A DNA stretch of 32,606 bases, from IMG/VR virus record IMGVR_UViG_3300045988_160698; one strand, written 5' to 3'. The translations under genes and the position numbers were made by a program. The notes under the pieces were generated by a model. The model searched no databases. It had not been told where the DNA came from and saw only the letters and a program-made list of their open reading frames with translations. Positions within the stretch are counted from its first letter, which is position 1. Each line of letters starts with the position of its first letter. Of the stretch, positions 81 through 30,631 are shown one piece after another. This DNA is from a virus.

Positions 81-1502
81 TTATCTGGGGTTCGTCTTTT
101 TTGTCGGCATAAAGTCATCGTCCCAATTGTCAAAGCTGAAATAGATCTGAACCTCATCGCCGTCAATCTGGATGAATCGAATGAACGTGTCGATGATGTC
201 ATACGGATCAGAATTTGCGTTCAGGGTATCGAGCCAGTCAATGTAATCGTCAATCGTTAGCGCTTCGGCGCTCTCGGCTTCGAGCGCGGTTGCAAGCTCG
301 TCCTTGAGTTCGCCTTGACGGGCTTTCAGCTCGTCCACCCTCTCCTTACCGCCGGGAGGGGCAAAGCCGTCCTCTATGGCTTGCCAGATGCGCTCAAACG
401 ACGCATCAATGCGCTTAATCTCTGCCTTGATTCGCTCACTGTCTTTTGGCTCATCGTATTCGGCGGTCTCGGCGATCATCATTTCGAGCGTCGTGATAAT
501 GCGCTCGCGCACCTTTGGGTCTTTGATTGATTCCAGGATGGTATCCGTGACGGCATCCTCGATAACGTCGCGCCTAAAGGTTCTGCGGCATTTCGGACAG
601 CGGTAGTAGTGGTAGACCTTGCCACTCTTGCCGGTTCCAGAGGTTCCGACATACCAACGGCCGCATTCACAGCAAAACATCTTTCCGCTCAGCGCGTACA
701 CGCGCTCGCCGTCTTCCACACGGTGCTTGTGGCCTCTGCCGTTGAGGACGTTGTTAATCTCTTCCTGTTCGCTGCGAGACCATATAGCGGGCATCCCGTT
801 AGGTATGCGCACACCGGCGTAGTTGTACGTGCCGCAGTTCTGCTCGCGCATGAGCAGCTTCTTGATGGATCCGTGCGAGAAGGGCCTTCCCCTCCTGGAG
901 CGCTCGGTCTTTACGGCTCGCTGGATGTCGGCAACTGTCGAGCCGCTAAGCAGCATGTTCTTCATCTTGTGCATGACGGCGGCTTCGCGCTCGTTGATGA
1001 CAAAGTGATCGTCTACGACATTCCATCCGTACAGGCGTTGACCGCTCGCCATGCCGCGTTGGGCGTTCTTCTGGATGCCGTCACGTATGCGTTCGCTATC
1101 AACGCCGCTCTCGTACTCCGCAAGCACCTCGAGCATACCGAGGTGCAGGACGCGCGTAGAACCCTCGCCGAGCGTTTCGCCGGCGTATAAGATCTCAACG
1201 CCGGCCTTGTGCAGCATAATGCGCGCAAGTGCCATTTCATCGCGGTTGCGCATGATTCGCGTGACCTTGTAAATCACCACATAATCAAATAGCCCTTTTT
1301 GGGCGTCTTTTAGCATTTGCTGAAACTCGGTGCGGTCTGAGTTCCTGCCAGTTTTGGCGTAGTCACTATATATGCGCACGACGGCAAGGCCGCTCTCTAC
1401 GCAAAACTCTCGGGACTTGTCGACCTGAATCTCAATGCTCTCGTCTCGCTGATTGTGCGAGCTAAAGCGTGCGTAGATAGCCGCACGACTACCTTTGGTC
1501 AT
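81..1502 (-). CDS. Large serine recombinase (phage integrase)
   Basis: 473 aa. N-terminal resolvase-type catalytic motif (AAIYARFSSHNQRDESIEIQ). Recombinase domain and Cys-rich zinc-ribbon (CCECG...YYRCPKC). C-terminal coiled-coil-like region. ATG at 1500-1502 preceded by AAGGTG. Sits next to the repressor gene, as expected for an integration module. Confidence 0.9.
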   Translation of the reverse strand: MTKGSRAAIYARFSSHNQRDESIEIQVDKSREFCVESGLAVVRIYSDYAKTGRNSDRTEFQQMLKDAQKGLFDYVVIYKVTRIMRNRDEMALARIMLHKAGVEILYAGETLGEGSTRVLHLGMLEVLAEYESGVDSERIRDGIQKNAQRGMASGQRLYGWNVVDDHFVINEREAAVMHKMKNMLLSGSTVADIQRAVKTERSRRGRPFSHGSIKKLLMREQNCGTYNYAGVRIPNGMPAIWSRSEQEEINNVLNGRGHKHRVEDGERVYALSGKMFCCECGRWYVGTSGTGKSGKVYHYYRCPKCRRTFRRDVIEDAVTDTILESIKDPKVRERIITTLEMMIAETAEYDEPKDSERIKAEIKRIDASFERIWQAIEDGFAPPGGKERVDELKARQGELKDELATALEAESAEALTIDDYIDWLDTLNANSDPYDIIDTFIRFIQIDGDEVQIYFSFDNWDDDFMPTKKTNPR

Positions 1503-3576: not shown

Positions 3577-3802
3577 CCAGCCGAGCCTGTTCGACGATCC
3601 GCCCATGCCGGAGCCGTGTCGATGCGATTACGAATGCGGCGTACTCGACGAGGACGGCGCAAAGCCCAAGAGCAAATGCACGTTTCGCGGGTCTGTCGTT
3701 TGGACTAACTGCCGCGAGTGCGGCCACTGCCTGTGGGACGGCTGGTGGCAGCGCGCCACGTGCGATGGCCTGTCTATCGATGATGGAGGTGAAGAGGAAT
3801 GA
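3560..3802 (+). CDS. Small Cys-rich hypothetical protein; start uncertain (3560 or 3605)
   Basis: Cys-rich C-terminal part (CRCDYECG...CTFRG...CRECGHCLW). The stop overlaps the next start (ATGA at 3799-3802). Neither candidate ATG has a clear RBS. Confidence 0.4.
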   Translation: MPATSSQPSLFDDPPMPEPCRCDYECGVLDEDGAKPKSKCTFRGSVVWTNCRECGHCLWDGWWQRATCDGLSIDDGGEEE

Positions 3803-4239
3803 TTACCAAGGACGTGCGCGATAAAGCCCAGGAGCCGATGGCATGGTTCCAACACGACTCAAACTCAGCGCAAGACCAGAAGTGCCAAAGGCTGCTGTTC
3901 CGCTACGGCAACGCGGGTTACGGTGCGTTCTGGCGCATCTGCGAGATTCTGGCGAACACCACGACGCACTCATTGCCGGTCGAGACCGACGAGGACTGGC
4001 TGATACTCGCGGAGCAGATCGGGATGCGCAAGGCGGGTGCCTTCGACGATATGTCGAGCGTCGAGGACTGTCGCGATTTCATCAGCTGTCTGCTGGAGAT
4101 CGGCTTGCTAAACCGGGACGGAAAAGGCCGCATCGAGAGTGCGCGAATGCAAAAAAACGCTCTTTATTTCGGCATGCAAAGGGCAAACGGAGCCAAGGGC
4201 GGCAGGCCGAAGAAGAACAAAACAGAGCCAACGGAATAG
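3799..4239 (+). CDS. Replisome organiser-like protein (DUF4373 / Lin1244-Lin1753 N-terminal domain)
   Basis: Motif WFQHDSNSAQDQKCQRLLFRYGNAGYGAFWRICEIL matches the DUF4373 signature as I remember it. Basic C-terminal tail. Sits directly upstream of the iteron region. Confidence 0.65.
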   Translation: MITKDVRDKAQEPMAWFQHDSNSAQDQKCQRLLFRYGNAGYGAFWRICEILANTTTHSLPVETDEDWLILAEQIGMRKAGAFDDMSSVEDCRDFISCLLEIGLLNRDGKGRIESARMQKNALYFGMQRANGAKGGRPKKNKTEPTE

Positions 4240-4314: not shown

Positions 4315-4554
4315 TAACAATACAGTACATAACAATACAGGGCGGGTTTTTGGGTTTGGGTCTAAAGACCCAAACCCAAAGCCAAAAACCCGCAACTTGC
4401 TTGTGGCGTTATGTAACAAGGAAGTCTTACTTTCTTTGCTTCTTTCTTTATCGCCCTTTAATTTCGCGCCTGATTTTCGAGTTTTCGCGCTTATAAAACT
4501 TGAGTTCTCAACAGCTTTTCAACAGGTTTTCAACAATCGTAATAGTTTTCAACA
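4315..4554. other. Putative origin of replication: direct repeats, long hairpin, AT/pyrimidine-rich tract and iterons
   Basis: About 320 bp with no coding potential. 2x TAACAATACAG (4315-4325, 4330-4340). Bulged hairpin 4343-4392 with an 11-bp perfect inner stem, GGGTTTGGGTC/GACCCAAACCC. T-rich tract at about 4420-4500. 4x TTYTCAACA at 4505, 4516, 4527 and 4546, the first three spaced 11 bp apart. Confidence 0.5.
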
Positions 4555-4565
4555 ATTGGACGGTG

Positions 4566-4775
4566 ATGCAAATGCCGTTTGGTAGCTACATCAACAAGAT
4601 CAGGGTCAAACGATGCTCTTATTGCGGTATCGACCGACCGAGGGATTGGTTCATCAAAGAGCGCAGCGCTTGCTGGAAGTGCAGGGCAGTCAAGAGGGAT
4701 GTTAAGGAGGGGATGTGCTATGACCTCATCGACGAAGGAACCATTCAAAAAGCTAAGCATATTCGACTTGGCTAG
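4566..4775 (+). CDS. Small zinc-ribbon protein (hypothetical)
   Basis: CSYCG...CWKC motif. Start placed at the first ATG after the iterons (4566). Overlaps the next gene by 56 nt. Confidence 0.4.
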   Translation: MQMPFGSYINKIRVKRCSYCGIDRPRDWFIKERSACWKCRAVKRDVKEGMCYDLIDEGTIQKAKHIRLG

Positions 4776-5199
4776 AGGCTACGAGCAGACCGATAGGAGT
4801 GACCGCAATTACGCGCGTCATCACTTCAACGATTACTTTACGTATCGAGACGTCATGCCGTGCGACATCACAGCTCTTGAGGGCTATATCTCAATCGAGA
4901 TTGCCGCCTTTCGTGCAATTGGCGAGGTGACCATTCCGGAGCTTTCCGTTTCCCATTACCGAAAAACGCGACCGATTATTCATGCAGGTGATGCCGGTGG
5001 TATCAGAGAAGCCTTCCTATTCTGCGATGGGTCGTATTTCAACGGGCGTGAGGCGATTTCATTCAATGAAGACGGGTTTATCGGCTTTTGCGGCTGGGCT
5101 GATTCGATGAACTCTAGGCCGTTTGTCTCTGGCTTCTGTCGATGGGTCGACGAGTGGATGACACCGGCGAAGTCATTGAGGGCGATGCGAAATGATTAG
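4720..5199 (+). CDS. Hypothetical early protein
   Basis: Internal ATG at 4720 preceded by AAGGAGG at 9-nt spacing. 159 aa. No family recognised. Confidence 0.6.
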   Translation: MTSSTKEPFKKLSIFDLARGYEQTDRSDRNYARHHFNDYFTYRDVMPCDITALEGYISIEIAAFRAIGEVTIPELSVSHYRKTRPIIHAGDAGGIREAFLFCDGSYFNGREAISFNEDGFIGFCGWADSMNSRPFVSGFCRWVDEWMTPAKSLRAMRND

Positions 5200-5578
5200 C
5201 GTCGATGACCTGCTTGCCGCCGCAAATGATCATCAAGTAAAAGTCTTGCGTCTGCTCCAACCGCAGGGCAAGCCTGACATCATCGAATGCGACGGCAGGC
5301 TGTACGTACCCGACAAAGAGTGCGAGTTCATCCCGGAGGAATTCGAAACCCGTTGGGACGATGAAAACCAGTGCTTGCGGATTGAGAAGCCTTCCGATGA
5401 TTGCGTTTGCTTCACGTGCTCTGAATGCGGTGAAGAGCTGAGGTTCGACTGGGATGGCGCAGGCAGCTGGTTTGAGCCCAAATACCCGTACAAGCCCATC
5501 GAGTTGAAATACTGCCCTGGATGCCGAGCAAGGGTTCTATTCCCGCATCCATGGCTTGATAAGGAGGTAGACAGATGA
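5192..5578 (+). CDS. Hypothetical protein with a zinc-ribbon-like CxxC pair
   Basis: CFTCSECG...CPGC motif. Start overlaps the previous stop. Confidence 0.55.
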   Translation: MISVDDLLAAANDHQVKVLRLLQPQGKPDIIECDGRLYVPDKECEFIPEEFETRWDDENQCLRIEKPSDDCVCFTCSECGEELRFDWDGAGSWFEPKYPYKPIELKYCPGCRARVLFPHPWLDKEVDR

Positions 5579-6472: not shown

Positions 6473-6659
6473 GTACGGAAAGTATCACGTCCTGGATAAC
6501 CTCTGCACGGTCTCACAGGACATGAGCAACCGCATCCTGACGTGCGAGCGGCGCGGTCGCAGCAACGTGATGGTCAGTTACGAAGACATTGTCATGTGGT
6601 CTGACATCGTGTCTGACGCCATCGAGGTCATCAACGAGAAGGGCGAGAAAGATGATTGA
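6465..6659 (+). CDS. Hypothetical protein
   Basis: ORF 6456-6659. The ATG at 6465 overlaps the upstream stop and follows GGGAG. Confidence 0.5.
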   Translation: MSKYGKYHVLDNLCTVSQDMSNRILTCERRGRSNVMVSYEDIVMWSDIVSDAIEVINEKGEKDD

Positions 6660-6909
6660 GAGTCCGAGCCATGCCCTCAACCGCATCATTAAGAACTTTG
6701 GTGATGCGTTCACATCCGCTTTGCGTGGAAAGGGAAACTTCTTCTTTGAGGTTTCACGCGCGGTGAGGCGTGCGCATAGGGAATGGGTCAAGTTCGAGAA
6801 GCGTTGCGTGAAGTATAGCGGCCCTAAATGGCAGCGCCGGTATACAAAGGCGCTCAAGCGCTCGCGCAGGAACGTCGCCTATCTGAAGCGCACCGGCAGG
6901 TGCCGGTGA
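6652..6909 (+). CDS. Small, strongly basic protein translationally coupled to the tyrosine integrase (possible directionality factor or DNA-binding protein)
   Basis: Internal ATG at 6652 overlaps the upstream stop. 85 aa, rich in K and R (RRAHREWVKFEKR...KRSRRNVAYLKRTGRCR). Its stop TGA (6907-6909) overlaps the integrase ATG (6909-6911). Confidence 0.45.
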   Translation: MIESPSHALNRIIKNFGDAFTSALRGKGNFFFEVSRAVRRAHREWVKFEKRCVKYSGPKWQRRYTKALKRSRRNVAYLKRTGRCR

Positions 6910-8105
6910 TGGGCATCGAGGTCAAGCGCGATGCCAAAGGCGTTTGGTACGCGCAGCCCTATCTTGGTACGACTCCGGAGGGCAAGCAGATCAGGCCGCG
7001 CCGCAGCTTTCCCGAAGCCGCCACACGCGCCCAGGCGCAGGAATTGGCGAACCGCTGGCTCTCCGATATCTCCGCCGGCGGCAAGGTACAGAGCGTCGTT
7101 ATCGCCGATTTGCTGTACGCCTACATCGACGAGCGCCGCGCCAAGGGCGTGAGCCCTTACACGGTGAAGCGCTGGAAACTGTTCACCCGAAGCTATGTGG
7201 GCAGGTACCTCAAGGGCAAATCGGTGCTCGACCTAGGTGTGATGGAGTTCAACGACTTAGAGACGCGCCTGCTGCTGCCGAAAGATAAACGTGGTCAGGG
7301 TCTGTCGCGAAACACGGTGCGCAGCGTGCATTTCTTCCTTCGCGGTGCATACAACCACTGGATCAAGGCCGGTGTCTGCGAGACCAACCCGCTCTTCTAC
7401 GTCGAGCCGCCGCATGAGGACAAGCACGAGGCGGTTGCGCTCGACGAGTGGGATTACCCGGGTCTGGACGAAGCGATAACGACCGCGTTGCATCCAGACG
7501 AGCCCACGGAAAAGACCATGAGGGAAGCTGCGTACGCCTTCGCCGCCTGGCTCGCGCTGCACACCGGCATGCGCGTCGGCGAGGTGTGCGCGATACGCAG
7601 GAGGGACGTGTCGAAGCGCATGGGATACCTCCACGTGTGCGGCAAGATCGTCGAGCTTGACGGCGGCGGCGTCGAGCGCGTGGACGTTACCAAGGGCCGT
7701 AAGAGCCGCAACGTCTCCATGACCGAGCGTGAGTTTGAGACGATTTTCGGCTTTATCGAGCTTCAGGACGGTTTTACGGACGTGTTCACACCGAACATGC
7801 CGTTGGTGTCTTTTGACGGCTTCTTCATGCGTCCCACGACCGTCTCAAAGGCTTTCAGCCGCCTGCGCGACCGTTTGGGGCTGCCGAAGGGATGCACCTT
7901 CCACAGCCTTAGACATACGCACGCCACGTGGCTGCTTGCCAACGGCGCGAACCTCAAGGACATCGCCGAACGCTTCGGCCATGCGAACGAAGCCACGACG
8001 CTCAAGCTCTACGCCCACGCGATGCCCGGACGCGACCAGAGAGCCGCCGAGGTGTTCGACAAGTTCACCGACGAGCTTCGCGGGGGGACTGTAAACGATG
8101 TGTAA
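6909..8105 (+). CDS. Tyrosine recombinase, phage-integrase type, with an N-terminal arm-binding-like domain
   Basis: Catalytic signature LHTGMRVGE (Arg), HSLRHTHATWLL (His-x-x-Arg), GHANEATTLKLYAH (His and the nucleophile Tyr). The N-terminus IEVKRDAKGVWYAQPYLG...GKQIRPRRSF resembles integrase arm-type DNA-binding domains. Confidence 0.9.
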   Translation: MGIEVKRDAKGVWYAQPYLGTTPEGKQIRPRRSFPEAATRAQAQELANRWLSDISAGGKVQSVVIADLLYAYIDERRAKGVSPYTVKRWKLFTRSYVGRYLKGKSVLDLGVMEFNDLETRLLLPKDKRGQGLSRNTVRSVHFFLRGAYNHWIKAGVCETNPLFYVEPPHEDKHEAVALDEWDYPGLDEAITTALHPDEPTEKTMREAAYAFAAWLALHTGMRVGEVCAIRRRDVSKRMGYLHVCGKIVELDGGGVERVDVTKGRKSRNVSMTEREFETIFGFIELQDGFTDVFTPNMPLVSFDGFFMRPTTVSKAFSRLRDRLGLPKGCTFHSLRHTHATWLLANGANLKDIAERFGHANEATTLKLYAHAMPGRDQRAAEVFDKFTDELRGGTVNDV

Positions 8106-8772: not shown

Positions 8773-9194
8773 GCGCCGAGAGCCTGAACACCTGCACGCT
8801 GAGCGGCAATCTCGGTAACGATGCCGAGGTGCGCTACACCAAGGGCGGCACACCTATCACCTCGTTCTCACTTGCCGTCAACCGCCGCCGCCGAACACAA
8901 GACGGCAGCTACGAGGATGAGACGAGCTGGGTCGACTGCACGCTGTTCGGTAAGCGCGGGGTAGCCCTGCAAGCGAACGGCTACCTGCACAAGGGCGCAC
9001 GGATCGCCATCACCGGGCACCTGCGAATGGCCGTCTGGGAAGCGGACGGTAAGCGCCATCGAAAGCTGGAGGTCATCGTCGACAACATCATCGGCATGAC
9101 CAGCTACCGTCAACCGCAAACCCAGCAGCCGCAACAGGCACCTCAACCGCAGGTCAACGCACCCGAGCTTTACGACGAAGACATTCCGTTTTAG
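8769..9194 (+). CDS. ssb: Single-stranded DNA-binding protein
   Basis: OB-fold SSB pattern (LNTCTLSGNLGNDAEVRYTKGGTPITSFSLAVN...W..C.LFGK.A). Gln/Pro-rich linker. Acidic tail ending DEDIPF. ATGA overlap with the upstream gene. Confidence 0.9.
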   Translation: MSAESLNTCTLSGNLGNDAEVRYTKGGTPITSFSLAVNRRRRTQDGSYEDETSWVDCTLFGKRGVALQANGYLHKGARIAITGHLRMAVWEADGKRHRKLEVIVDNIIGMTSYRQPQTQQPQQAPQPQVNAPELYDEDIPF

Positions 9195-9202
9195 GAGGAA
9201 AG

Positions 9203-9640
9203 ATGTACGGACGAAAGATGAACGTGAAGGTGATGAACGGATCGGAGCGGCCGCGCTATGCGCATGAGGGCGACGCCGGCTTCGACATGTGCCTTACCGA
9301 GGACTGCCGCCTTGAGCCAAACGCCAGAGCCATCGTCGGACTTGGCTGCGCGTTCGAGATTCCGAGCGGCTGTGTCGGCCTGCTCTTCCCGCGCTCTGGT
9401 CTGGCGAGCAAGCACGACGTGACGCTCAGCCACGGTGTCGGCGTTATCGACAGCTGCTATCGCGGCGAGGTCAGCGCACCGCTCGTCAACCTCAGCTGCG
9501 ATATCGTCAACCTGCCGAAGGGCTCGCGCGTCTGCCAGATGGTCATCGTGCCGTTCGTGCCGTGTCAGCTCGTCGAGGTCGACGAGCTGACGGACACCGA
9601 GCGCGGAGCCGATGGCCTCGGCTCCACCGACATCGAGTAG
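9203..9640 (+). CDS. dut: dUTP diphosphatase (trimeric dUTPase)
   Basis: Motifs AGFD, PRSGLASK, GVIDSCYRGE and ERGADGLGST. TAGGAGG RBS. Confidence 0.9.
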   Translation: MYGRKMNVKVMNGSERPRYAHEGDAGFDMCLTEDCRLEPNARAIVGLGCAFEIPSGCVGLLFPRSGLASKHDVTLSHGVGVIDSCYRGEVSAPLVNLSCDIVNLPKGSRVCQMVIVPFVPCQLVEVDELTDTERGADGLGSTDIE

Positions 9641-9649
9641 GCGAAGCGC

Positions 9650-10096
9650 GTGGATGCCAAGGAGTATTTCGAAGCCATCCGCGAGGAAGTGAAGGCCATC
9701 GAGGGCACGAGGGAAATGCTGGCAAGGCTCAGGGCGAGGGAAGGAGCGAAAGCCCAGAGCTACAGCGGCGGCGGTGGCGGCGGGTATGCCGACCCGATGG
9801 ATGCAATCAATGGCCGAATCGATCTGGAGGGCAGGTTCGAGCGGCGCATCGCCGACAGCTCAGCCGCCATTGATGAAGCGTGCGCGGTGCTCTATGGCAG
9901 TGACAACCGTGGCGGTCTCGCAAGGCAGAAGGGCAACCGATATGCCGACGCGATCTGCATGGGTTACTGTCAGGCCATGCCGTGGACTGAGGTTGCAGCC
10001 GTCATGCAGTGCTCACCGAAGTGGTGCCGAGAGCTTTGCAACGCTGCGTTCAGGTACATCGACGCAGTTGGCATGGCATGGCTGAAAGAAAATTGA
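9650..10096 (+). CDS. Putative late-gene transcriptional regulator (sigma-70 region-4-like / HTH C-terminus)
   Basis: GTG start. The C-terminal ICMGYCQAMPWTEVAAVMQCSPKWCRELCNAAFRYID resembles a region-4-like HTH. It is the last gene before the terminator and the packaging module. The functional call is weak. Confidence 0.4.
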   Translation: MDAKEYFEAIREEVKAIEGTREMLARLRAREGAKAQSYSGGGGGGYADPMDAINGRIDLEGRFERRIADSSAAIDEACAVLYGSDNRGGLARQKGNRYADAICMGYCQAMPWTEVAAVMQCSPKWCRELCNAAFRYIDAVGMAWLKEN

Positions 10097-26064: not shown

Positions 26065-27624
26065 ATGGATTTTACTTTTCCGCGAAACGAGACGTTTGAG
26101 CGCATCGCCGTCGCGCTTGAAGGCATGGGTGCATCGGCGGTGCCGAAGTTCAGCGAGGAAACTGGGCGCTACGACAATGCATCCATCGACGCATGGCTCG
26201 CTCGTATGCGAGACGGGAAGAACTACGGCGTTAGCATCCCGAAGGGCAGCTCAACCGCCTGCACCAAGACAGGCGCGAACGCCGGCATCGCCAACCCCAA
26301 GCCCGGCGTCATCGGGCGCGCGGCGATCGACCCGTACGTCAACCAAGGCGCGTTCTTCTTCGTGGAAGTCAACGGCGGCGTGGATGCCGACGGCACTCCG
26401 TACGTAACGGCAATCGACGGCGATGGCCGCTTCTCGCGTCTCGACGATACATGGGTCTTGACGCCGGTGCTTTACACTCTTGAGAGCGAGACCGATGATG
26501 CGGTTACCCTCACCGTTTCGGACACACGCCAGCCGGGCATGAAGCGGCAGCCCGCCGCGCTGCTGCCGAACGGTGCGCAGCGTCCTTATATGTTGTATGC
26601 AAAGTATGCACTGTCGGTCGACGCCGACGGCAAGCCGCGAAGCGTGAGCGGCGCTGCGGTCAAGACACGCAGCGTGAGCCACGATAGCGGCATCGGCCTG
26701 ATGAAGACCGCGAGCACCGGCGATTCACTCAAGGTCGCAGCCGATGACTGGTACGTCAAGACGATGTTCCTGCTCAAGTATGCGACGAAGAACAGCCAGA
26801 GTATCTTTACCGGATGCACCGGATACGACATCACCGCCACTCCGACACTCGCTGAAAGCAACACCACGAGGGTCGTTATCGCCAAGGACAAGGCCGATCA
26901 GATTCTAATCGGCTCCGCGATGATGTTCGGCACACATACTGGCACGAGTACCGACCGCGGCTACGATTACAACTGCGATATCTTCGATGGAGCGAGGGTC
27001 ACCAAGAAGGTTGCCGTCGACGCATCCAATGTGGCAGTCTATTTCGATGTCGCTAAGCCCTTCTCGACCGCTACGACCTATCAGCTCGCAACCGCACCGT
27101 GGAACACCGGCTCTTGCGACATGGTTGAGGGCGACGGATCGCCGACGAGCTGCACGGACGGAAAGCAGCCCTTTGTCGTTCAGGGTATCGAGCTCGGGCT
27201 TGGAATGCTTGAGGTTCTTGGAAACGTCCTCATCCAGTACACAGGTACTGGCGCGATCGTTTACGTGAACCCGGACACTAAGAACGAGAAGGCCGGCAGC
27301 TCACCGGACAGCGCGCTGTCTGCCGGGGCTTTTCCCGGGCAAGCAGCTGAGGGATGGAATTACGCTCTTTACTGCAAGACGGTCAACGGCCTGATGATTC
27401 AGCAGGGAACGGGTGCGTCGACTTCTGTTGGCATCTGCGACGGCAACTACAAGGTCGCGGACACTACAGTCGGCTGGAGAGAGTGGCCTTCTCTCGGCAC
27501 TTTGGGGTACGGGGCTCTCGGCGGTCTTTGGTTCGTCCCCGGCTACAACGGCGCCGGCGACGCCGGGTGGCACATCGGCTCGCGCCGCTCTGCCAATGGT
27601 CGCTCTAGGGGTGAAGCGGCGTAA
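26065..27624 (+). CDS. Receptor-binding tail fibre protein; DGR target gene carrying the variable region at its C-terminus
   Basis: 519 aa with a TAGGAGG RBS. Last structural gene of the tail module. Its last ~45 codons contain the VR, which is the repeat of the TR downstream. The motif GGLW......G...G....W.IG.R resembles the C-type-lectin-like ends of known DGR targets. Confidence 0.85.
   Translation: MDFTFPRNETFERIAVALEGMGASAVPKFSEETGRYDNASIDAWLARMRDGKNYGVSIPKGSSTACTKTGANAGIANPKPGVIGRAAIDPYVNQGAFFFVEVNGGVDADGTPYVTAIDGDGRFSRLDDTWVLTPVLYTLESETDDAVTLTVSDTRQPGMKRQPAALLPNGAQRPYMLYAKYALSVDADGKPRSVSGAAVKTRSVSHDSGIGLMKTASTGDSLKVAADDWYVKTMFLLKYATKNSQSIFTGCTGYDITATPTLAESNTTRVVIAKDKADQILIGSAMMFGTHTGTSTDRGYDYNCDIFDGARVTKKVAVDASNVAVYFDVAKPFSTATTYQLATAPWNTGSCDMVEGDGSPTSCTDGKQPFVVQGIELGLGMLEVLGNVLIQYTGTGAIVYVNPDTKNEKAGSSPDSALSAGAFPGQAAEGWNYALYCKTVNGLMIQQGTGASTSVGICDGNYKVADTTVGWREWPSLGTLGYGALGGLWFVPGYNGAGDAGWHIGSRRSANGRSRGEAA
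27484..27588 (+). repeat. DGR variable region (VR)
   Basis: Aligns with 27694-27798 at a constant offset of 210 bp. Over the 103-bp core (27484-27586) there are 16 mismatches. Of these, 14 fall at positions where the TR has A. Confidence 0.9.
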
Positions 27625-27646
27625 GCCGCGAGGGGACTTGTCCCCT
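27616..27646. promoter_or_regulatory. Two tandem GC-rich tetraloop hairpins just downstream of VR (candidate DGR target-recognition structure)
   Basis: GCGGC-gtaa-GCCGC (27616-27629; the target stop codon lies in the loop). AGGGGA-cttg-TCCCCT (27631-27646). Confidence 0.5.
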
Positions 27647-27693
27647 TATGAAAACAAGCAGGGATTCGCGGCGCGCGGGCTGTCATGTTCTGT

Positions 27694-27798
27694 TGGCTTT
27701 CTCTCGGCAACTTGAGGAACAGGGCTAACGGCGGTCTTTGGTACGTCAACGGCAACAACGGCACCGGCAACGCCAGGTGGAACATCGGCTCGCGCCTA
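27694..27798 (+). repeat. DGR template repeat (TR)
   Basis: Invariant-copy candidate. It contains 22 adenines, all at codon positions 1 or 2 when read in the VR frame (8 AAC codons). It lies between the target gene and the RT gene. The 70-aa track ORF 27685-27897 is an artefact of this repeat. Confidence 0.9.
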
Positions 27799-27977
27799 TC
27801 TGGACAAAACAAGCAATCATTCCAGCTACACATTTACTTCCGCCGCGACTACCCGCCGCCGCTGGTGGCGAGCGGGCATTTGGCCTGGGTCAACTGACTG
27901 AAATGGCTTTAAGACCACTGGGTTAGTAGCTGATAGGTGAAACCTCAGACAGTATCCAGAGAGAAACGGTCTGACAA

Positions 27978-29156
27978 TTGAAGACATATTGCAGAGGGCT
28001 TCGCATAGACGGAGCCCTCATTTATAGAGCTTACGGTAATTGGCTTAAGGCACCGGCAGGCAAGAAGAACGCCTGGCGCGTGCCGATTGAATACGGCAGC
28101 GTGGCTTCGCTTCTGGCTGAGATCGAGGGCGAGATTTACCATCGCTCGCTGACATTTCAACCGATCAGACGTCATTGGTACCGTGAGCCAACCAACGGAA
28201 AACTACGGCTCATCGGCGTGGAGAGCGTCAAGCAGCAGGTCTGTGATTACGTCGCAATTGAAGCTCTTCATGACCTGTTGCACGCTAAGGTCGGATTCTG
28301 GCAGGTTTCGAGCGTCAAGGGCAAGGGGCAGACTATGGCGGCGAATGCCGTGAGCCGCTGGTCTCAGGAGGGCGGCTATTTCGTCCACCTTGACATTCGC
28401 AAATGCTATCCGTCAATCAAGACAGACGTGGTGATGGGTGTCCTTCGCCATTACGTGCGGAGTCCCGATGTCATGTATATATGCAGGACGCTGCTCTCCA
28501 CATACGATGACGGGCTTGAGATCGGCAGCTACTTCAGTCTCCGCATGGCGCAGCTCGTTCTGTCCTTTGGCTACCACTCCATAGAGGGCATGCATAAGGT
28601 GCGGCGAGGCAACAGCGTCGCAATGGTGTCGCATCAGCTTTGGTACGCAGATGACATCTATCTATTCAGCCAGGACAAGCGCAACTTGCGCAGCGCCGCG
28701 AGGGAATTGCAAAGGTTCCTCCTTAAGCGCTACGGACTGCATCTCAAGGCATGGAAAATCTGCCGCATATCGAACGATGAGCCGGTGGATGTCGTCGGGT
28801 TCACAGTGCGACCAAACCGCGTGACGCTGCGACCCTCGCTGTTCCTGCGCGCGTGCCGGGCATATCGGAAATACAGGCGATTGCCCACTCTCAAGCGCGC
28901 GAGGCGCGTGACGAGCTACAACGGCTGGTTCAAGCACTCAGATTCGAGCAGCCTGGTTAGGGACAACGGATTTGACCAGGTATTCAAAAAGGCAAGGCGG
29001 CACGTGAGTGCTGCGGGAAGGAAGAAACATGAGTTATCAGACAGTATCGGCAACGCCGCTCGCACCTGTAATGATCGAAGCGCGTGCCGACGGCCTCACG
29101 TCCGACGTGTGGCTGCGCAAGAACATCCAGAAGGACGTTGCAGACAACGGCATTGA
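27978..29156 (+). CDS. Reverse transcriptase (DGR-type, divergent)
   Basis: RT motifs KLRLIGVESVKQQVCDYVAIEAL, SSVKGKGQTMAA, LDIRKCYPSI, LEIGSYFSLRMAQ and the catalytic LWYADDIYLF. The only available start is TTG at 27978, directly after an in-frame TGA. The 3' end overlaps the next gene by 128 nt. Confidence 0.88.
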   Translation: MKTYCRGLRIDGALIYRAYGNWLKAPAGKKNAWRVPIEYGSVASLLAEIEGEIYHRSLTFQPIRRHWYREPTNGKLRLIGVESVKQQVCDYVAIEALHDLLHAKVGFWQVSSVKGKGQTMAANAVSRWSQEGGYFVHLDIRKCYPSIKTDVVMGVLRHYVRSPDVMYICRTLLSTYDDGLEIGSYFSLRMAQLVLSFGYHSIEGMHKVRRGNSVAMVSHQLWYADDIYLFSQDKRNLRSAARELQRFLLKRYGLHLKAWKICRISNDEPVDVVGFTVRPNRVTLRPSLFLRACRAYRKYRRLPTLKRARRVTSYNGWFKHSDSSSLVRDNGFDQVFKKARRHVSAAGRKKHELSDSIGNAARTCNDRSACRRPHVRRVAAQEHPEGRCRQRH

Positions 29157-29400
29157 CTCTGGTAAAGCCATCGAGTTCTACCGAGCCGATGAGATTCAAT
29201 TCGTACAGGCGGGAGTCCCGACTCTCGACGGCATCACCGCCGCATTCGACGAGCTCTGGGCAGCGCACGAGGATGACGGTCTCAGCGACACCGAGCGCAT
29301 CGACAAGATCATCGAGTCGCTTTCCGCGACGAGGGCGGCACTCGAAGACACCAATGCCGCGCTGCTGGAGATCGGTGACATCGTTGGAGGCGAAGAGTGA
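29029..29400 (+). CDS. Hypothetical acidic protein (XkdW-like position)
   Basis: ATG at 29029 follows GGAAGGAAG. 123 aa and acidic. Precedes the XkdX-like ORF and the holin. Confidence 0.55.
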   Translation: MSYQTVSATPLAPVMIEARADGLTSDVWLRKNIQKDVADNGIDSGKAIEFYRADEIQFVQAGVPTLDGITAAFDELWAAHEDDGLSDTERIDKIIESLSATRAALEDTNAALLEIGDIVGGEE

Positions 29401-29525
29401 TGGCGAAAATCTACTTCGAAGCCGTCAAAGACGAAAGGCGCACGCTTGAGAGCGTACCGAAGCGCTGGCGCGCTGCCGTGGCGGAACTGCTGAAAGCATT
29501 CAAAGACACTGACCAGGAGGAATAA
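29400..29525 (+). CDS. XkdX-like small protein (41 aa); too short for the ORF track
   Basis: My own translation: MAKIYFEAVKDERRTLESVPKRWRAAVAELLKAFKDTDQEE. Its ATG overlaps the upstream TGA. The pattern (...RTLE.VP...R..V..LL) and the position before the holin match XkdX-type proteins. Confidence 0.5.
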   Translation: MAKIYFEAVKDERRTLESVPKRWRAAVAELLKAFKDTDQEE

Positions 29526-29529
29526 TCAA

Positions 29530-29949
29530 ATGGATCTCGCACCTATCTACACGTTCACCGAGCAGCAGGTATGGGCCATCGCTGGCGCATTCATCCTCAT
29601 GCTCTTCGACATGGTGAGCGGCATCATTCAGGCAGTCATGAACCGTGAGTTCCGCAGCTCCACGATGCGCACCGGACTCGGCCACAAGGCGGTGCTGGCG
29701 CTTATCATCTTGCTCGCAATCTGTATCGAAATCCTCAGCGCCCACGTTGCCGGCCTTGGCTTCGGCGGCGTGACAATCTACGTGGTGTGCGTCGCAACCA
29801 TCATCATGGAGGTCGCGAGCATCATGGAGAACCTCTGCAAGGCTTATCCCGAGCTTGCAGACCTTCCGGTCATGAAGATCTTCGAGCATGCGGACGCGGA
29901 TGCGGTCAACCCTAAGACGGTCGCAGATGAAGTGTACAAGCGCGGCTAG
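29530..29949 (+). CDS. Holin (phage_holin_4_1 / toxin-secretion holin-like)
   Basis: 139 aa with three hydrophobic helices (WAIAGAFILMLFDMVSGIIQA, AVLALIILLAICIEIL, GVTIYVVCVATIIMEVASI). AGGAGG RBS. Sits directly upstream of the lysins. Confidence 0.8.
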   Translation: MDLAPIYTFTEQQVWAIAGAFILMLFDMVSGIIQAVMNREFRSSTMRTGLGHKAVLALIILLAICIEILSAHVAGLGFGGVTIYVVCVATIIMEVASIMENLCKAYPELADLPVMKIFEHADADAVNPKTVADEVYKRG

Positions 29950-30631
29950 GCTCCGGCTCGCGGCAGCGCTGCTTCTTGGCATTGCAGTCGGCTTCAGCAC
30001 TTGGATCGGCATCGCAGCTCAGCATGTGCAGTCAGACAGTATAAGCAGTGTAAAGACCTACGAGCGCGGATACAGCGACGGAGTTCAGGACGCGCAGCCA
30101 ATTTACGACAAGAGTGATTCTAAAAAGAGCGGCTATATGCCGCTCTTTTTGCAAAAAGACCCGCAATGGTCATCGACCGCCTATAGCGACGAGACCATCG
30201 GCACCTACGGGTGCGGCCTCACGTGTGCCGCCATGGCGCTGAGCTACGAGCAGGGCGCGCCGGTGACACCGGATGCCCTCGCAAACATCGTAGGCGATTC
30301 GTGCCTTACAGACCGAGTAAACGACATGGCGAAGTTCACGCAGTTCACCCACGACAGATACGGATATGACCGAGTTGACACCTTCTGGGGCACGGACAGT
30401 GCCCTCGATTATGTCGACGACGGATGGATCGTATTCGCCGGAGTTAGTGGTCAGCTGGGAGACCGTGAATACGGCAGCCACGTCGTGATGATCTGGCGTG
30501 CGAACGATGACGGGACGTATGCGCTACGTGACCCGGACGATGGAGCCAACTCAATCAAAACATGGACAAGGGAAGAGCTCGAAGCCGTCTACTTCGGCTC
30601 ATTTAACGCTATTAGAGGTGATGCGCGATGA
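29927..30631 (+). CDS. Membrane-anchored C39-like (papain-fold) cysteine peptidase, putative second endolysin
   Basis: N-terminal signal-anchor (RLRLAAALLLGIAVGFSTWIGIAA). The pattern PLFLQKDPQWS...GTYGCGLTCAAMALSY...GSHVVMIW resembles Peptidase_C39_2. The start may be 29888 or 29927; both lie inside the holin 3' end. Confidence 0.6.
   Translation: MKCTSAARLRLAAALLLGIAVGFSTWIGIAAQHVQSDSISSVKTYERGYSDGVQDAQPIYDKSDSKKSGYMPLFLQKDPQWSSTAYSDETIGTYGCGLTCAAMALSYEQGAPVTPDALANIVGDSCLTDRVNDMAKFTQFTHDRYGYDRVDTFWGTDSALDYVDDGWIVFAGVSGQLGDREYGSHVVMIWRANDDGTYALRDPDDGANSIKTWTREELEAVYFGSFNAIRGDAR

Follow-up and report, generated by a model that had tools for sequence, protein, structure and literature searches.

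The window, by which we mean the whole stretch of 32,606 nt analysed, carries a genuine DGR of a Collinsella-type prophage, with a conserved anatomy, covarying RNA helices, adenine-specific differences between its two repeats, and no detectable Avd. Its odd traits are either common to the whole lineage or incidental, and the element is therefore an ordinary example of the already known class of DGRs without Avd. Beyond this assignment, the cassette is probably functional, as part of an abundant lineage of DGRs with no detectable Avd in prophages of the Coriobacteriales (Collinsella, Senegalimassilia, Olsenella). An earlier note, made from the sequence alone, had called it a minimal and atypical DGR, which overstated the case: the order target-TR-RT without avd is a described architecture, and the features singled out in the reverse transcriptase (the SL ending of motif 4, the YADD box and the TTG start) are traits of the lineage. 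The cassette consists of a receptor-binding target gene with a 3' variable repeat, two hairpins, a 5' RNA arm, the template repeat, a structured spacer, and the reverse transcriptase (RT) gene. These and the other features discussed below are the following.

26065..27624, + strand: DGR target gene (ORF of 519 aa; phrog_17147, 2e-73), tail/receptor-binding module with the VR at its 3' end
27484..27592, + strand: variable repeat (VR), from a 109-nt alignment to the TR
27616..27647, + strand: two tandem hairpins 3' of the VR, predicted in almost every one of 16 related loci
27666..27673, + strand: 5' arm (TCGCGGCG) of a long-range helix bracketing the TR, pairing with 27841-27848
27694..27802, + strand: template repeat (TR), from the alignment to the VR
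27803..27977, + strand: structured spacer RNA from TR to RT (RNAalifold, covariation)
27978..29030, + strand: conserved core of the DGR reverse transcriptase, residues 1-351, with a TTG start (RVT_1; phrog_1423, 1e-51)
29031..29156, + strand: Arg-rich, unconserved C-terminal extension of the RT ORF, present in 5 of 67 distinct family RTs
29029..29400, + strand: DS, an acidic protein of 123 aa (pI 4.1), conserved companion of the RT lineage
29397..29525, + strand: CD1375-family small protein in the XkdX position, outside the DGR (NCBIfam NF040910, 4e-12; phrog_1382)
6652..6909, + strand: small basic ORF of 85 aa (pI 11.6, GC3 0.70)

Repeats and reverse transcriptase

The target gene also matches a tail-protein phrog and is preceded by a BppU_N gene; a Pfam search of the target itself gave no match. 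The VR ends 32 nt 5' of the target stop and is separated from the TR by 101 nt. Over the 109 aligned nucleotides, the two repeats show 18 mismatches, 15 of which fall on the 23 adenines of the TR and the other three at the two edges of the alignment, bearing out the adenine-mutagenesis footprint that had been read from the VR. A VR at the 3' end of the target with adenine-specific TR/VR differences was likewise found in about 40 related loci (14/14, 12/12, 13/13, and 10/10, for example), in which the TR lies 155-180 nt 5' of the RT, as it does here.

The RT is a true DGR-type enzyme from a large family of RTs found in Coriobacteriales prophages, with 370 homologs. Its ORF extends from the TTG at 27978 to 29156 and encodes 392 aa (pI 10.2). 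The family profile had the bRT structure 8ub7 as its best PDB match (3e-16, the next match being 3e-7), and the AF2 model of the RT matched 8ub7_A with an E-value of 1.7e-14 and a TM score of 0.82 (321 columns, rmsd 2.8 Å), in line with the phrog_1423 match and with membership of the DGR RT group. Residues R77 and I182, invariant in the family, align with R74 and I181 of bRT, which function in adenine mutagenesis (PMC7826257). The earlier note had read motif 4 as LEIGSYFSL, with the signature Gln replaced by Leu, and the catalytic box as YADD. Both readings are correct, and neither marks a deviation of this particular RT. The motif IGSYFSL retains the I, G, and S of the signature [I/V/L]GxxxSQ and is invariant in the Coriobacteriales-phage clade, Leu replacing Gln throughout, while the family as a whole includes YADD, YMDD, HMDD, and HLDD boxes. 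The Gln position is tolerant of change, because the Q187P substitution in bRT leaves misincorporation unaltered (PMC7826257). Moreover, the change from SQ to SL does not go along with the loss of Avd, because sister clades that are also without detectable Avd keep SQ.

The two ends of the RT ORF can be understood from its relatives. At the 5' end, the frame indeed has no ATG before its first internal Met, residue 120. An in-frame TGA is found at 27972-27974, as had been noted, and one CAA codon intervenes, so that the TTG does not follow it directly. Rather than an oddity, this TTG is the start that the lineage conserves: at the aligned codon of the 67 distinct RTs, TTG occurs in 51, ATG in 10, ATA in five, and GTG in one. 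At the 3' end, the overlap of 128 nt with the next gene was confirmed; the usual RT/DS overlap in the lineage is 35 nt. The usual RT stop codons are located inside DS codons, and two substitutions, in DS codons 11-12 and 14-16, removed two TGAs of the RT frame. The GC content of the resulting tail by codon position (0.70/0.60/0.42, versus 0.56/0.43/0.69 in the RT body) is that of the downstream gene read out of frame, which agrees with the suspicion voiced before, and the tail is predicted to be disordered (pLDDT of about 30 in the AF2 model). A sequencing frameshift behind the long ORF was rejected, as the frame is continuous; the tail is common to four IMG/VR sequences (L065-L067, L069) and to the independent assemblies P0001 and P0002. 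The overlap has no function and is no frameshift; it reflects the incidental loss of stop codons. For annotation, the tail is not to be taken for a domain, gene callers often miss or misplace the TTG start, and in some cases the TR is found fused with the ORF of the RT.

These features could be read in another way, namely as the marks of a dead RT (motif 4, the TTG start, and the run-on ORF) in a decaying DGR whose VR differences are historical. The lack of the signature Gln, the TTG without a good Shine-Dalgarno sequence (SD), the loss of the normal stop, and the degeneration of some relatives (an RT remnant in locus L087 and a split RT in L046) would all fit such a relic. Against it, these RT traits, except the tail, are conserved over 67 distinct RTs, whose ORFs and catalytic residues are intact, and the tail is disordered and appended to a core that is itself intact. 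In addition, VR and TR differ only at adenines, in numbers that vary between near-identical prophages, from 7 to 20 sites (L019-L028), and the compensatory changes in the flanking RNA, described below, imply selection. We therefore consider a relic highly improbable and treat the cassette as a probably functional element.

Structured RNA around the template repeat

The intervals between VR and TR and between TR and RT had been described as free of ORFs except for an artefact of the TR. Mechanically predicted ORFs do exist there on both strands, and the intervals contain conserved structured RNA. The first tandem hairpin (GCGGC-GTAA-GCCGC) holds the TAA stop of the target in its loop, and the second has the form GAGGGGA-CTTG-TCCCCTT. 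Their stem sequences differ among relatives, as in TTGACGC/GCGTCAA or GGGGGC/GCCCCC, and they are analogous to the hairpin that follows the VR in BPP-1, whose role they may share. The long-range helix is formed by the 5' arm at 27666-27673 and the 3' arm CGCCGCGA (27841-27848); it is 94.7% paired on A7 and has compensatory variants in loci L052, L044, and L004. Besides this 3' arm, the spacer comprises three local stems and a TCCAG (27955-27959) whose pairing partner, CTGGA (27800-27804), is located at the 3' end of the TR. As four of the five pairs of this second helix are invariant, its support consists of conservation plus one covarying pair, and the main Collinsella group has a possible alternative partner for the same CUGG in an ACCAGCU that lies nearer. 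Both long-range helices cross each other and form a pseudoknot.

RNAalifold applied to 19 sequences yielded 24 pairs, 13 of them with compensatory changes. For the structure of 32 pairs, 96% of cells were paired, compared with 33-45% in slid controls, and compensatory changes occurred in 16 pairs, a result matched by none of 500 shuffles. A structured spacer, a duplex between the spacer and the segment upstream of the TR, and a duplex between the spacer and the 3' end of the TR are thus present by covariation; the two helices resemble the stop and primer duplexes of BPP-1 and may be equivalent to them. A scan for sigma-70 promoters found none for the TR-RT transcript. Among Rfam families, the spacer aligned over the full length of RF03073 (RT-19) at 27848-27949, with 23.1 bits and an E-value of 0.01 in a 221-nt search. 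Membership of RT-19 was rejected, the gathering threshold being 78.3 bits, and the spacers of the relatives reached no Rfam family threshold either, which makes the spacer of the window an uncurated variant.

A mechanism can be proposed by transfer from BPP-1, on which the assignments of priming, of helix roles, and of catalysis independent of Avd are modelled. A transcript that begins near 27660 and reaches the RT start would fold so that the segment 5' of the TR pairs with the spacer, as a counterpart of the duplex between avd and Sp known as the 'cPRT Stop' in BPP-1, and the CUGGA at the TR 3' end would then pair with the UCCAG about 20 nt 5' of the RT start. The RT, synthesised at a low level from the conserved TTG without a good SD, would be primed in cis on the folded RNA and would copy the TR with adenine-specific misincorporation through the equivalents of R74 and I181 of bRT, after which the cDNA would replace the VR. 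Avd would play no part, and the RT would need nothing but the RNA or would be assisted by a factor other than Avd. Since the order of the 'stop' and 'primer' strands along the spacer is reversed relative to BPP-1, the analogy may fail in detail.

Avd and the downstream gene DS

The earlier finding of no recognisable Avd in the cassette holds, and it extends to the 32.6-kb window and to all 11 loci scanned. Pfam searches recovered none among the 113 six-frame ORFs of 75-200 aa in the window or among 149 ORFs in ten related loci, and PHROG searches none among the basic small ORFs of the window and the ORFs of the cassette; no match to PF22296 (bAvd), PF05635, or phrog_3206 was obtained in the window or the ten loci. 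Absence here is absence in HMM searches, which detected a BPP-1-type Avd, the positive control, at 7e-36 (bAvd, Pfam) and 9e-29 (phrog_3206, PHROG); avd genes are described as very poorly conserved by Wu et al. 2018 (PMC5758913). Space is a further constraint: from the VR end to the RT start there are 385 nt, 109 of which are TR, so that a gene for 100-130 aa cannot fit. The earlier suggestion of an Avd-independent lineage stands in that Avd is undetected both here and in ten related loci, while independence of catalysis would follow from the analogy with BPP-1.

An Avd-like factor might be present elsewhere, unlinked or too divergent to be recognised, either as the ORF at 6652-6909 or encoded by the host. 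This ORF is basic and has a coding-like GC3, but with 85 aa it falls short of an Avd, a basic four-helix bundle of about 110-130 aa (PF22296/PF05635). It is located in the early region, at a distance of 21 kb, adjoins a gene of the tyrosine recombinase family (6828-8105), and has no similarity in Pfam, NCBIfam, PHROG, or PDB, so that nothing connects it with the DGR as the unlinked accessory factor it had been proposed to be. The bAvd and PHROG profiles, strong on the control, found no candidate among the scanned ORFs of the window and related loci. The prophage occurs in several genera, and a host factor would therefore need to be universal. According to Wu et al. 2018 (PMC5758913), a profile search of avd-less genomes retrieved no unlinked avd; Avd is not mentioned in Roux et al. 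2021 or in the Faecalibacterium prophage paper. We consider an overlooked Avd very doubtful and retain the view that the lineage lacks a detectable one.

The gene following the RT, DS, has its own strong SD (GGAAGGAAG) and an ATG within the 3' end of the RT. It was described before as acidic and not Avd-like, in agreement with its pI, with an AF2 model (pLDDT 92) of a beta-sheet and a long helix, and with the lack of an Avd profile match; Avd identity was rejected by the profiles for every scanned ORF of the window and, for DS, also by its fold. Its reported XkdW-like position is borne out in so far as it sits before a gene of XkdX size, the CD1375-family gene, which is followed by holin, C39-like, and GH25 genes. 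Identity with XkdW itself (PF09636) was rejected: DS has no Pfam match at E-values up to 0.1 and no fold match in a Foldseek search of the PDB, where nothing was better than E 0.37. A profile search for DS relatives located away from an RT returned close relatives only among its best 120 matches.

DS is directly 3' of the RT, and overlaps it, in all genome loci with an RT identity of at least 42%. Of 44 IMG/VR loci retrieved through DS itself, in a scan biased by its two peptide patterns, 43 likewise have it after the RT, and it comes directly after the RT in MT836575, MT839517, MT835469, L110, and L111. Such tight linkage may leave room for a protein cofactor, and DS could be the accessory subunit of the lineage, functionally replacing Avd; produced in larger amounts than the RT, it would bind this basic protein or position the RNA. 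In favour of this idea, DS also stands beside canonical-SQ RTs of 27-36% identity in very different phages, one of them of 176 kb, and is without a fold or family match. The RT end is overlapped by a small acidic ORF in FP_Epona, LBR48, and the crAss-like cr55_1 too, and DS has a weak BFVD structural match to a 111-aa cr55_1 protein, equated with the post-RT ORF by length alone. A precedent exists in CH1, a small acidic protein reported only from avd-less DGRs by Wu et al. 2018 (PMC5758913).

Several observations speak against such a role. The linkage is inseparable from position, as DS always lies between the tail-fibre target and the lysis genes, and in L087 intact DS, CD1375, and holin genes accompany an RT reduced to a stop-containing C-terminal remnant, with the target absent. 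As an acidic protein with a beta-sheet and one long helix, DS does not qualify as a basic nucleic-acid binder or as a helical bundle. An acidic ORF after brt (82 aa, ending ...ELLGGE) is also present in the BPP-1-type phage, which contains Avd, and BPP-1 retrohoming requires only avd, TR, and brt in trans, as stated by Wu et al. (PMC5758913). Deep homology of DS with the post-RT ORFs of Epona, LBR48, cr55_1, and BPP-1 was rejected, since none was significant by hhalign (probabilities <10%); all four align to the 'VWLRRNI' region of DS, and the homology is therefore kept as a hint only. On balance, we think it unlikely that DS is the accessory subunit. Similarly doubtful is the wider proposal that DS is an unrecognised DGR accessory replacing Avd in Coriobacteriales and Lachnospiraceae phages, and possibly in Faecalibacterium, Lactobacillus, and crAss-like phages, with the primer and stop strands of the spacer arranged unlike those of BPP-1.

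Whichever role DS has, it is the single candidate partner protein of the lineage, which comes from the human gut and, being compact, abundant, and apparently active, can serve as a test case with clearly delimited RNA elements (27646-27990). To our knowledge, Avd is regarded as essential in the sole DGR understood biochemically, and no Avd-less DGR has been reconstituted so far. If RT and RNA were sufficient, with or without DS, there would be a second mode of DGR reverse transcription and a smaller toolkit for targeted mutagenesis.

Comparison with known DGRs

When compared to BPP-1 (mtd-avd-TR-Sp-brt; RNA architecture in 10.1101/2023.10.23.563531), the cassette shares the RT fold with the R74/I181 equivalents, a 3'-terminal VR with adenine-specific changes, a GC-rich identical stretch closing both VR and TR, hairpins 3' of the VR, and a structured spacer between TR and RT that forms duplexes with the segment upstream of the TR and with the TR 3' end. 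In contrast to BPP-1, it lacks an avd gene, has only 101 nt between VR and TR, and encodes a motif 4 ending in SL instead of SQ, in an RT with a TTG start whose ORF overlaps the acidic gene that follows. The strand order in the spacer is reversed, which implies the pseudoknot, and the spacer is not a member of the Rfam Phage_DGR family. The Rfam RT-n and Phage_DGR families are conserved structured RNAs located between TR and the gene for the RT (Weinberg et al. 2017, PMC5737381). RT-10/Phage_DGR corresponds to the BPP-1 spacer, and the Rfam spacers of BPP-1, Epona, and LBR48 occupy the same position as the spacer described here. RT-19, which aligns with it end to end, has in common the elements ACUACCC-stem-GAGCGGGCA, GAAAU, and GGUAG.

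Regarding the distribution of Avd, Wu et al. 2018 (PMC5758913) give avd as present in about 74% of DGRs and thus not universal, with 26% lacking it, Architecture A accounting for 29%, and Lineage 3 devoid of avd; Avd-independent mutagenic homing was already proposed there. Architecture A1 (target-TR-RT) has the same order as our cassette, in which avd, HRDC, and MSL are all absent, and the searched text of that study does not mention the SL variant of motif 4 or an RT-coupled DS gene. CH1, of unknown fold and flanking the RT only where avd is lacking, is small and acidic like DS (pI 4.7 versus 4.1), a likeness of published description; CH1 has 160-169 aa and belongs to Bacteroides Lineage 3a, whereas DS has 123 aa.

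The Faecalibacterium phage FP_Epona and the Lactobacillus phage LBR48 differ from our cassette in several respects. Their RTs share 21-26% identity with the RT of the window, motif 4 of FP_Epona is the canonical LGFYISQ, their spacers belong to separate curated Rfam families (RT-4 and RT-18, respectively), and homology of their post-RT ORFs with DS is not demonstrable. Nevertheless, both have the gene order found here, composed of the target, TR, spacer, RT, an acidic ORF, a gene of XkdX size, and the holin/lysin genes, also without avd. In FP_Epona, 11 of 11 TR/VR differences are located at adenines, and a 12-bp duplex brackets the TR in a manner equivalent to the long-range helix of our cassette.

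The prophage and its diversity-generating cassette

The window amounts in essence to an entire prophage of siphovirus type, with its genes in the following order:

Left end: large serine recombinase (81-1502, minus strand) and repressor
Early region: SSB, dUTPase and a tyrosine-recombinase-family gene (6828-8105, plus strand), among other early genes
After the early region: terminase, portal and capsid genes
Next: tape measure, Dit, tail proteins and a BppU_N protein
Next: 519-aa DGR target, template repeat (TR) and reverse transcriptase (RT)
After the RT: small acidic gene (29029-29400), CD1375-family peptide, holin, C39-like protein (29888-30631) and GH25 lysin

The prophage thus carries two recombinases, the catalytic domain of the second beginning only at residue 234. 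The Peptidase_C39_2-like gene, which precedes the GH25/CW_7 lysin, shares 62 nt with the 3′ end of the holin before it and is kept in related prophages. Genome relatives of the RT were almost all from Collinsella, Senegalimassilia, Olsenella, and other Coriobacteriales, with a more distant branch (36% identity) in Lachnospiraceae.

All coordinates and sequence features reported in the earlier note were found in the window. The TR (27694-27802) and the variable repeat (VR, 27484-27592) formed a gapless alignment of 109 nt in which they differed at 18 positions. Fifteen of these fell on adenines, of which the TR has 23, and the remaining three lay at the very edges of the aligned stretch. Adenine-specific VR/TR differences were also seen across ~40 related loci. 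With these differences, an intact conserved RT, and a selected RNA structure, the cassette shows every activity hallmark except the altered motif-4 signature, and it typifies an abundant DGR lineage of gut phages. Two relatives looked degenerate or rearranged, namely L046 (6765-9089), in which the RT is broken into two ORFs, and L035 (5754-9065); in both, the best TR-like match was more than 2 kb distant.

Reverse transcriptase motifs, start codon and overlapping tail

The RT, for which 370 homologs were retrieved at E<1e-5, is a true DGR RT. A family profile of 27 homologs matched the Bordetella phage BPP-1 RT (bRT, PDB 8ub7) nearly full length at 3e-16, the second-best PDB match being a group II/retron-type RT at 3e-7. 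The AF2 model (pLDDT 83) likewise had bRT as its best structural match (E 1.7e-14, TM 0.82, rmsd 2.8 Å, 321 columns).

The deviations of this RT, read earlier as signs of an atypical DGR, are lineage traits. Motif 4 (LEIGSYFSL) is clade-wide: IGSYFSL is fixed among Coriobacteriales phages, two divergent members having LGGHASL, while the next branches carry the canonical IGSYLSQ with YMDD, and the Faecalibacterium phage FP_Epona carries LGFYISQ with HLDD. Nor is the YADD catalytic box a deviation, as it alternates with YMDD, HMDD, and HLDD within the family. Residues R77, I182, G183, S184, S187, and L188 were invariant in the family alignment, and alignment to bRT equated R77 and I182 with R74 and I181, the two bRT residues shown to promote adenine misincorporation (PMC7826257). 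Substitution of the last signature residue in bRT (Q187P) left misincorporation unaltered (PMC7826257), so the glutamine-to-leucine change of motif 4 falls at a tolerant position.

The RT ORF extends from TTG 27978 to 29156. An in-frame TGA precedes the TTG by two codons, and the earliest internal methionine is residue 120. Homologous proteins start at the same MK[ST]YCK. When start codons were tallied at the DNA level in 67 distinct family RTs, the aligned codon was TTG in 51, ATG in 10, GTG in one, and ATA in five, all five of the latter having a TTG three codons upstream. The ATG-bearing members confirm the position, and TTG, previously considered an oddity, is the start that this sub-lineage normally uses. 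Upstream of the start, nucleotide-level conservation (CCAGAGAG...GGTC) reflects an RNA structure there, and we infer that this structural constraint could plausibly explain the poor Shine–Dalgarno sequence. Gene callers differ on the RT length (352, 361, or 377 aa). The 352-aa public calls place the start nine codons late, in others the TR pseudo-ORF and the RT are often merged into one gene (460- and 447-aa ‘RTs’, P0004 and P0008), and in one public annotation the TR was miscalled as a 67-aa gene (L059, 3668-3871).

At the other end, the RT ORF overlaps the next gene, DS, by 128 nt. The usual RT of the family has 361 aa and a 35-nt overlap, and the 392-aa form with a 128-nt overlap was represented by only five distinct sequences. 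The normal RT stop is a TGA across DS codons 11-12 (Leu-Asp, CTT GAY), and codons 15-16 (CTG ATY) contain a second RT-frame TGA; the window has CTC GCA and ATG ATC at these places, so that both stops are lost. The conserved RT ends near residue 351, and the extra 41 residues were unconserved and predicted to be disordered (pLDDT ~30). The codon-position GC pattern of the tail was that of an out-of-frame read, in agreement with the earlier impression of its Arg-rich sequence. A frameshift as the source of the long ORF was ruled out, since independent assemblies carry the same tail.

Accessory genes and the downstream acidic protein

When every six-frame ORF of 75-200 aa in the window (113 in total) was scanned against Pfam, neither bAvd nor PF05635 was returned. 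For ten related loci (21-63% RT identity, including Lachnospiraceae relatives and FP_Epona), the 149 ORFs situated up to 3 kb from the RT were scanned in the same way, and the only Avd match was the BPP-1-type positive control (7e-36), which PHROGs called ‘Avd protein of DGR’ (9e-29); PHROGs found no Avd among the basic small ORFs or cassette ORFs of the window. Avd was likewise undetected in FP_Epona and in the sampled loci of the Lachnospiraceae branch (L047, L049), which keep SQ, so the SL variant does not track Avd loss. The earlier proposal of an Avd-less lineage thus stands as to the missing Avd, but not as to its being atypical, since the class is already described: avd is present in 74% of DGRs, the TR-RT arrangement without an accessory gene (Architecture A) accounts for 29%, Lineage 3 lacks avd, unlinked avd genes were sought and not found, and an Avd-independent mechanism was proposed (Wu et al. 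2018, PMC5758913). The published phages FP_Epona and LBR48 (a Lactobacillus phage) share the layout of our cassette. The very basic 85-aa ORF at 6652-6909, suggested as an unlinked factor, is probably a real gene given its GC3 of 0.70; it adjoins the recombinase gene of the early region, had no similarity to Avd or anything else in Pfam, NCBIfam, PHROG, or PDB, and nothing connects it to the DGR.

DS encodes 123 aa with a pI of 4.1, and its relatives numbered 528 in a 90%-identity clustered collection (99 clusters at 50% identity). Its AF2 model (pLDDT 92) combined a beta region of four strands with two short helices and a long helix at the C-terminus. This fold bears out the view that DS is not Avd-like, and the XkdW-like assignment fell because no PDB structure matched better than E 0.37. 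BFVD matches were limited to uncharacterised gut-phage proteins, one of them a weak match to a 111-aa crAss-like cr55_1 protein; a 111-aa ORF overlapping the RT stop in cr55_1 is tied to this match by length only.

DS followed and overlapped the RT at all genome loci whose RT identity reached 42%, as well as in 43 of 44 IMG/VR loci (recovered via DS itself), where distant members (32-35% identity) adjoin canonical-SQ RTs. The arrangement also occurred in MT836575, MT839517, MT835469, L110, L111, and Lachnospiraceae loci. Such coupling would favour DS as an accessory protein of the DGR, but this role appears unlikely, as the linkage is confounded by position, a small acidic ORF also follows brt in an Avd-containing BPP-1-type phage, and one locus (L087) kept DS, the CD1375 gene, and the holin without the target and with only a stop-containing RT remnant. 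In L087 (IMGVR_UViG_3300045988_178224, 4841-5372), the DGR is lost: RT residues ~298-391 are left, with an in-frame stop, the recombination junction lies inside the RT, and the three retained genes are joined to a different tail module. The acidic ORF of the BPP-1-type phage, Bordetella phage vB_BbrP_003 (L053, 3899-4144; 82 aa, pI 4.2), lies 176 nt after brt. Its C-terminus (...AELLGGE) resembles that of DS (...IGDIVGGEE), and a non-significant hhalign comparison aligned ‘DYLRGSI’ with the DS hallmark ‘VWLRKNI’. In an Olsenella/Collinsella sub-branch with ATG-start RTs (L033, L034, L039-L041, L046; about 9049-9765), the DS domain sits in a frame open for a further ~120-240 aa, the extension matching other unknown-function PHROGs. 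In the DGR of the 176-kb phage MT835469.1 (3780-6345), the ‘avd position’ from VR (3780-3877) to TR (4520-4617) is occupied by an RNase H gene (169 aa; RNase_H 6e-12). Downstream lie, in order, the RT, a DS-like ORF, and genes for a GIY-YIG homing endonuclease and an endolysin.

Structured RNA and comparison with known DGRs

The VR-TR and TR-RT ‘gaps’ are RNA. The TR-RT spacer (155-180 nt in relatives) is conserved, with covariation, even where RTs are only 50% identical. RNAalifold predicted 24 pairs in it, 13 with compensatory changes; 96.5% of cells were paired versus 33-42% in slid controls, and none of 500 shuffles equalled this. Including long-range helices, the full alignment gave 32 pairs (96% paired, 16 with compensatory changes). 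In helix A, TCGCGGCG (27666-27673, 21 nt upstream of the TR) pairs with CGCCGCGA in the spacer (27841-27848), with compensatory variants in relatives L052 (CTGGCCCC/GGGGCCAG), L044 (CGTGGCG/CGCCACG), and L004, and a 12-bp equivalent of unrelated sequence in FP_Epona. Helix B joins CTGGA, located where the TR ends (27800-27804), to TCCAG (27955-27959), ~20 nt before the TTG; four of its pairs are invariant and the fifth covaries. Two tandem hairpins with varying stem sequences are conserved downstream of the VR, and the first hairpin loop holds the target stop codon. Immediately before the TR, the block AGGGATTCGCGGCGCGYGGGC (27664-27690) shows hardly any variation, also outside the 8 nt that helix A requires, and its GGG could alternatively pair with a spacer CCC. 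A scan for sigma-70-like promoters of the TR-RT transcript found none.

The BPP-1 DGR RNA has two essential duplexes, the avd:Sp ‘cPRT Stop’ and the TR:Sp template:primer, with priming from Sp A56, in a study covering only Avd-containing DGRs (10.1101/2023.10.23.563531). By analogy, helices A and B may correspond to these two duplexes, respectively; in contrast to BPP-1, the spacer-strand order is reversed, and the helices therefore cross. The BPP-1, FP_Epona, and LBR48 spacers belong to the Rfam families Phage_DGR, RT-4, and RT-18, respectively, the RT-n motifs being predicted to belong to DGRs (Weinberg et al., PMC5737381), and ours matched RT-19 full-length but below threshold. Relative to the literature found, the SL form of motif 4 throughout the clade, an uncurated spacer RNA whose helices cross, and the strict RT-DS coupling are new; these features are noteworthy but leave the classification of the cassette unchanged.
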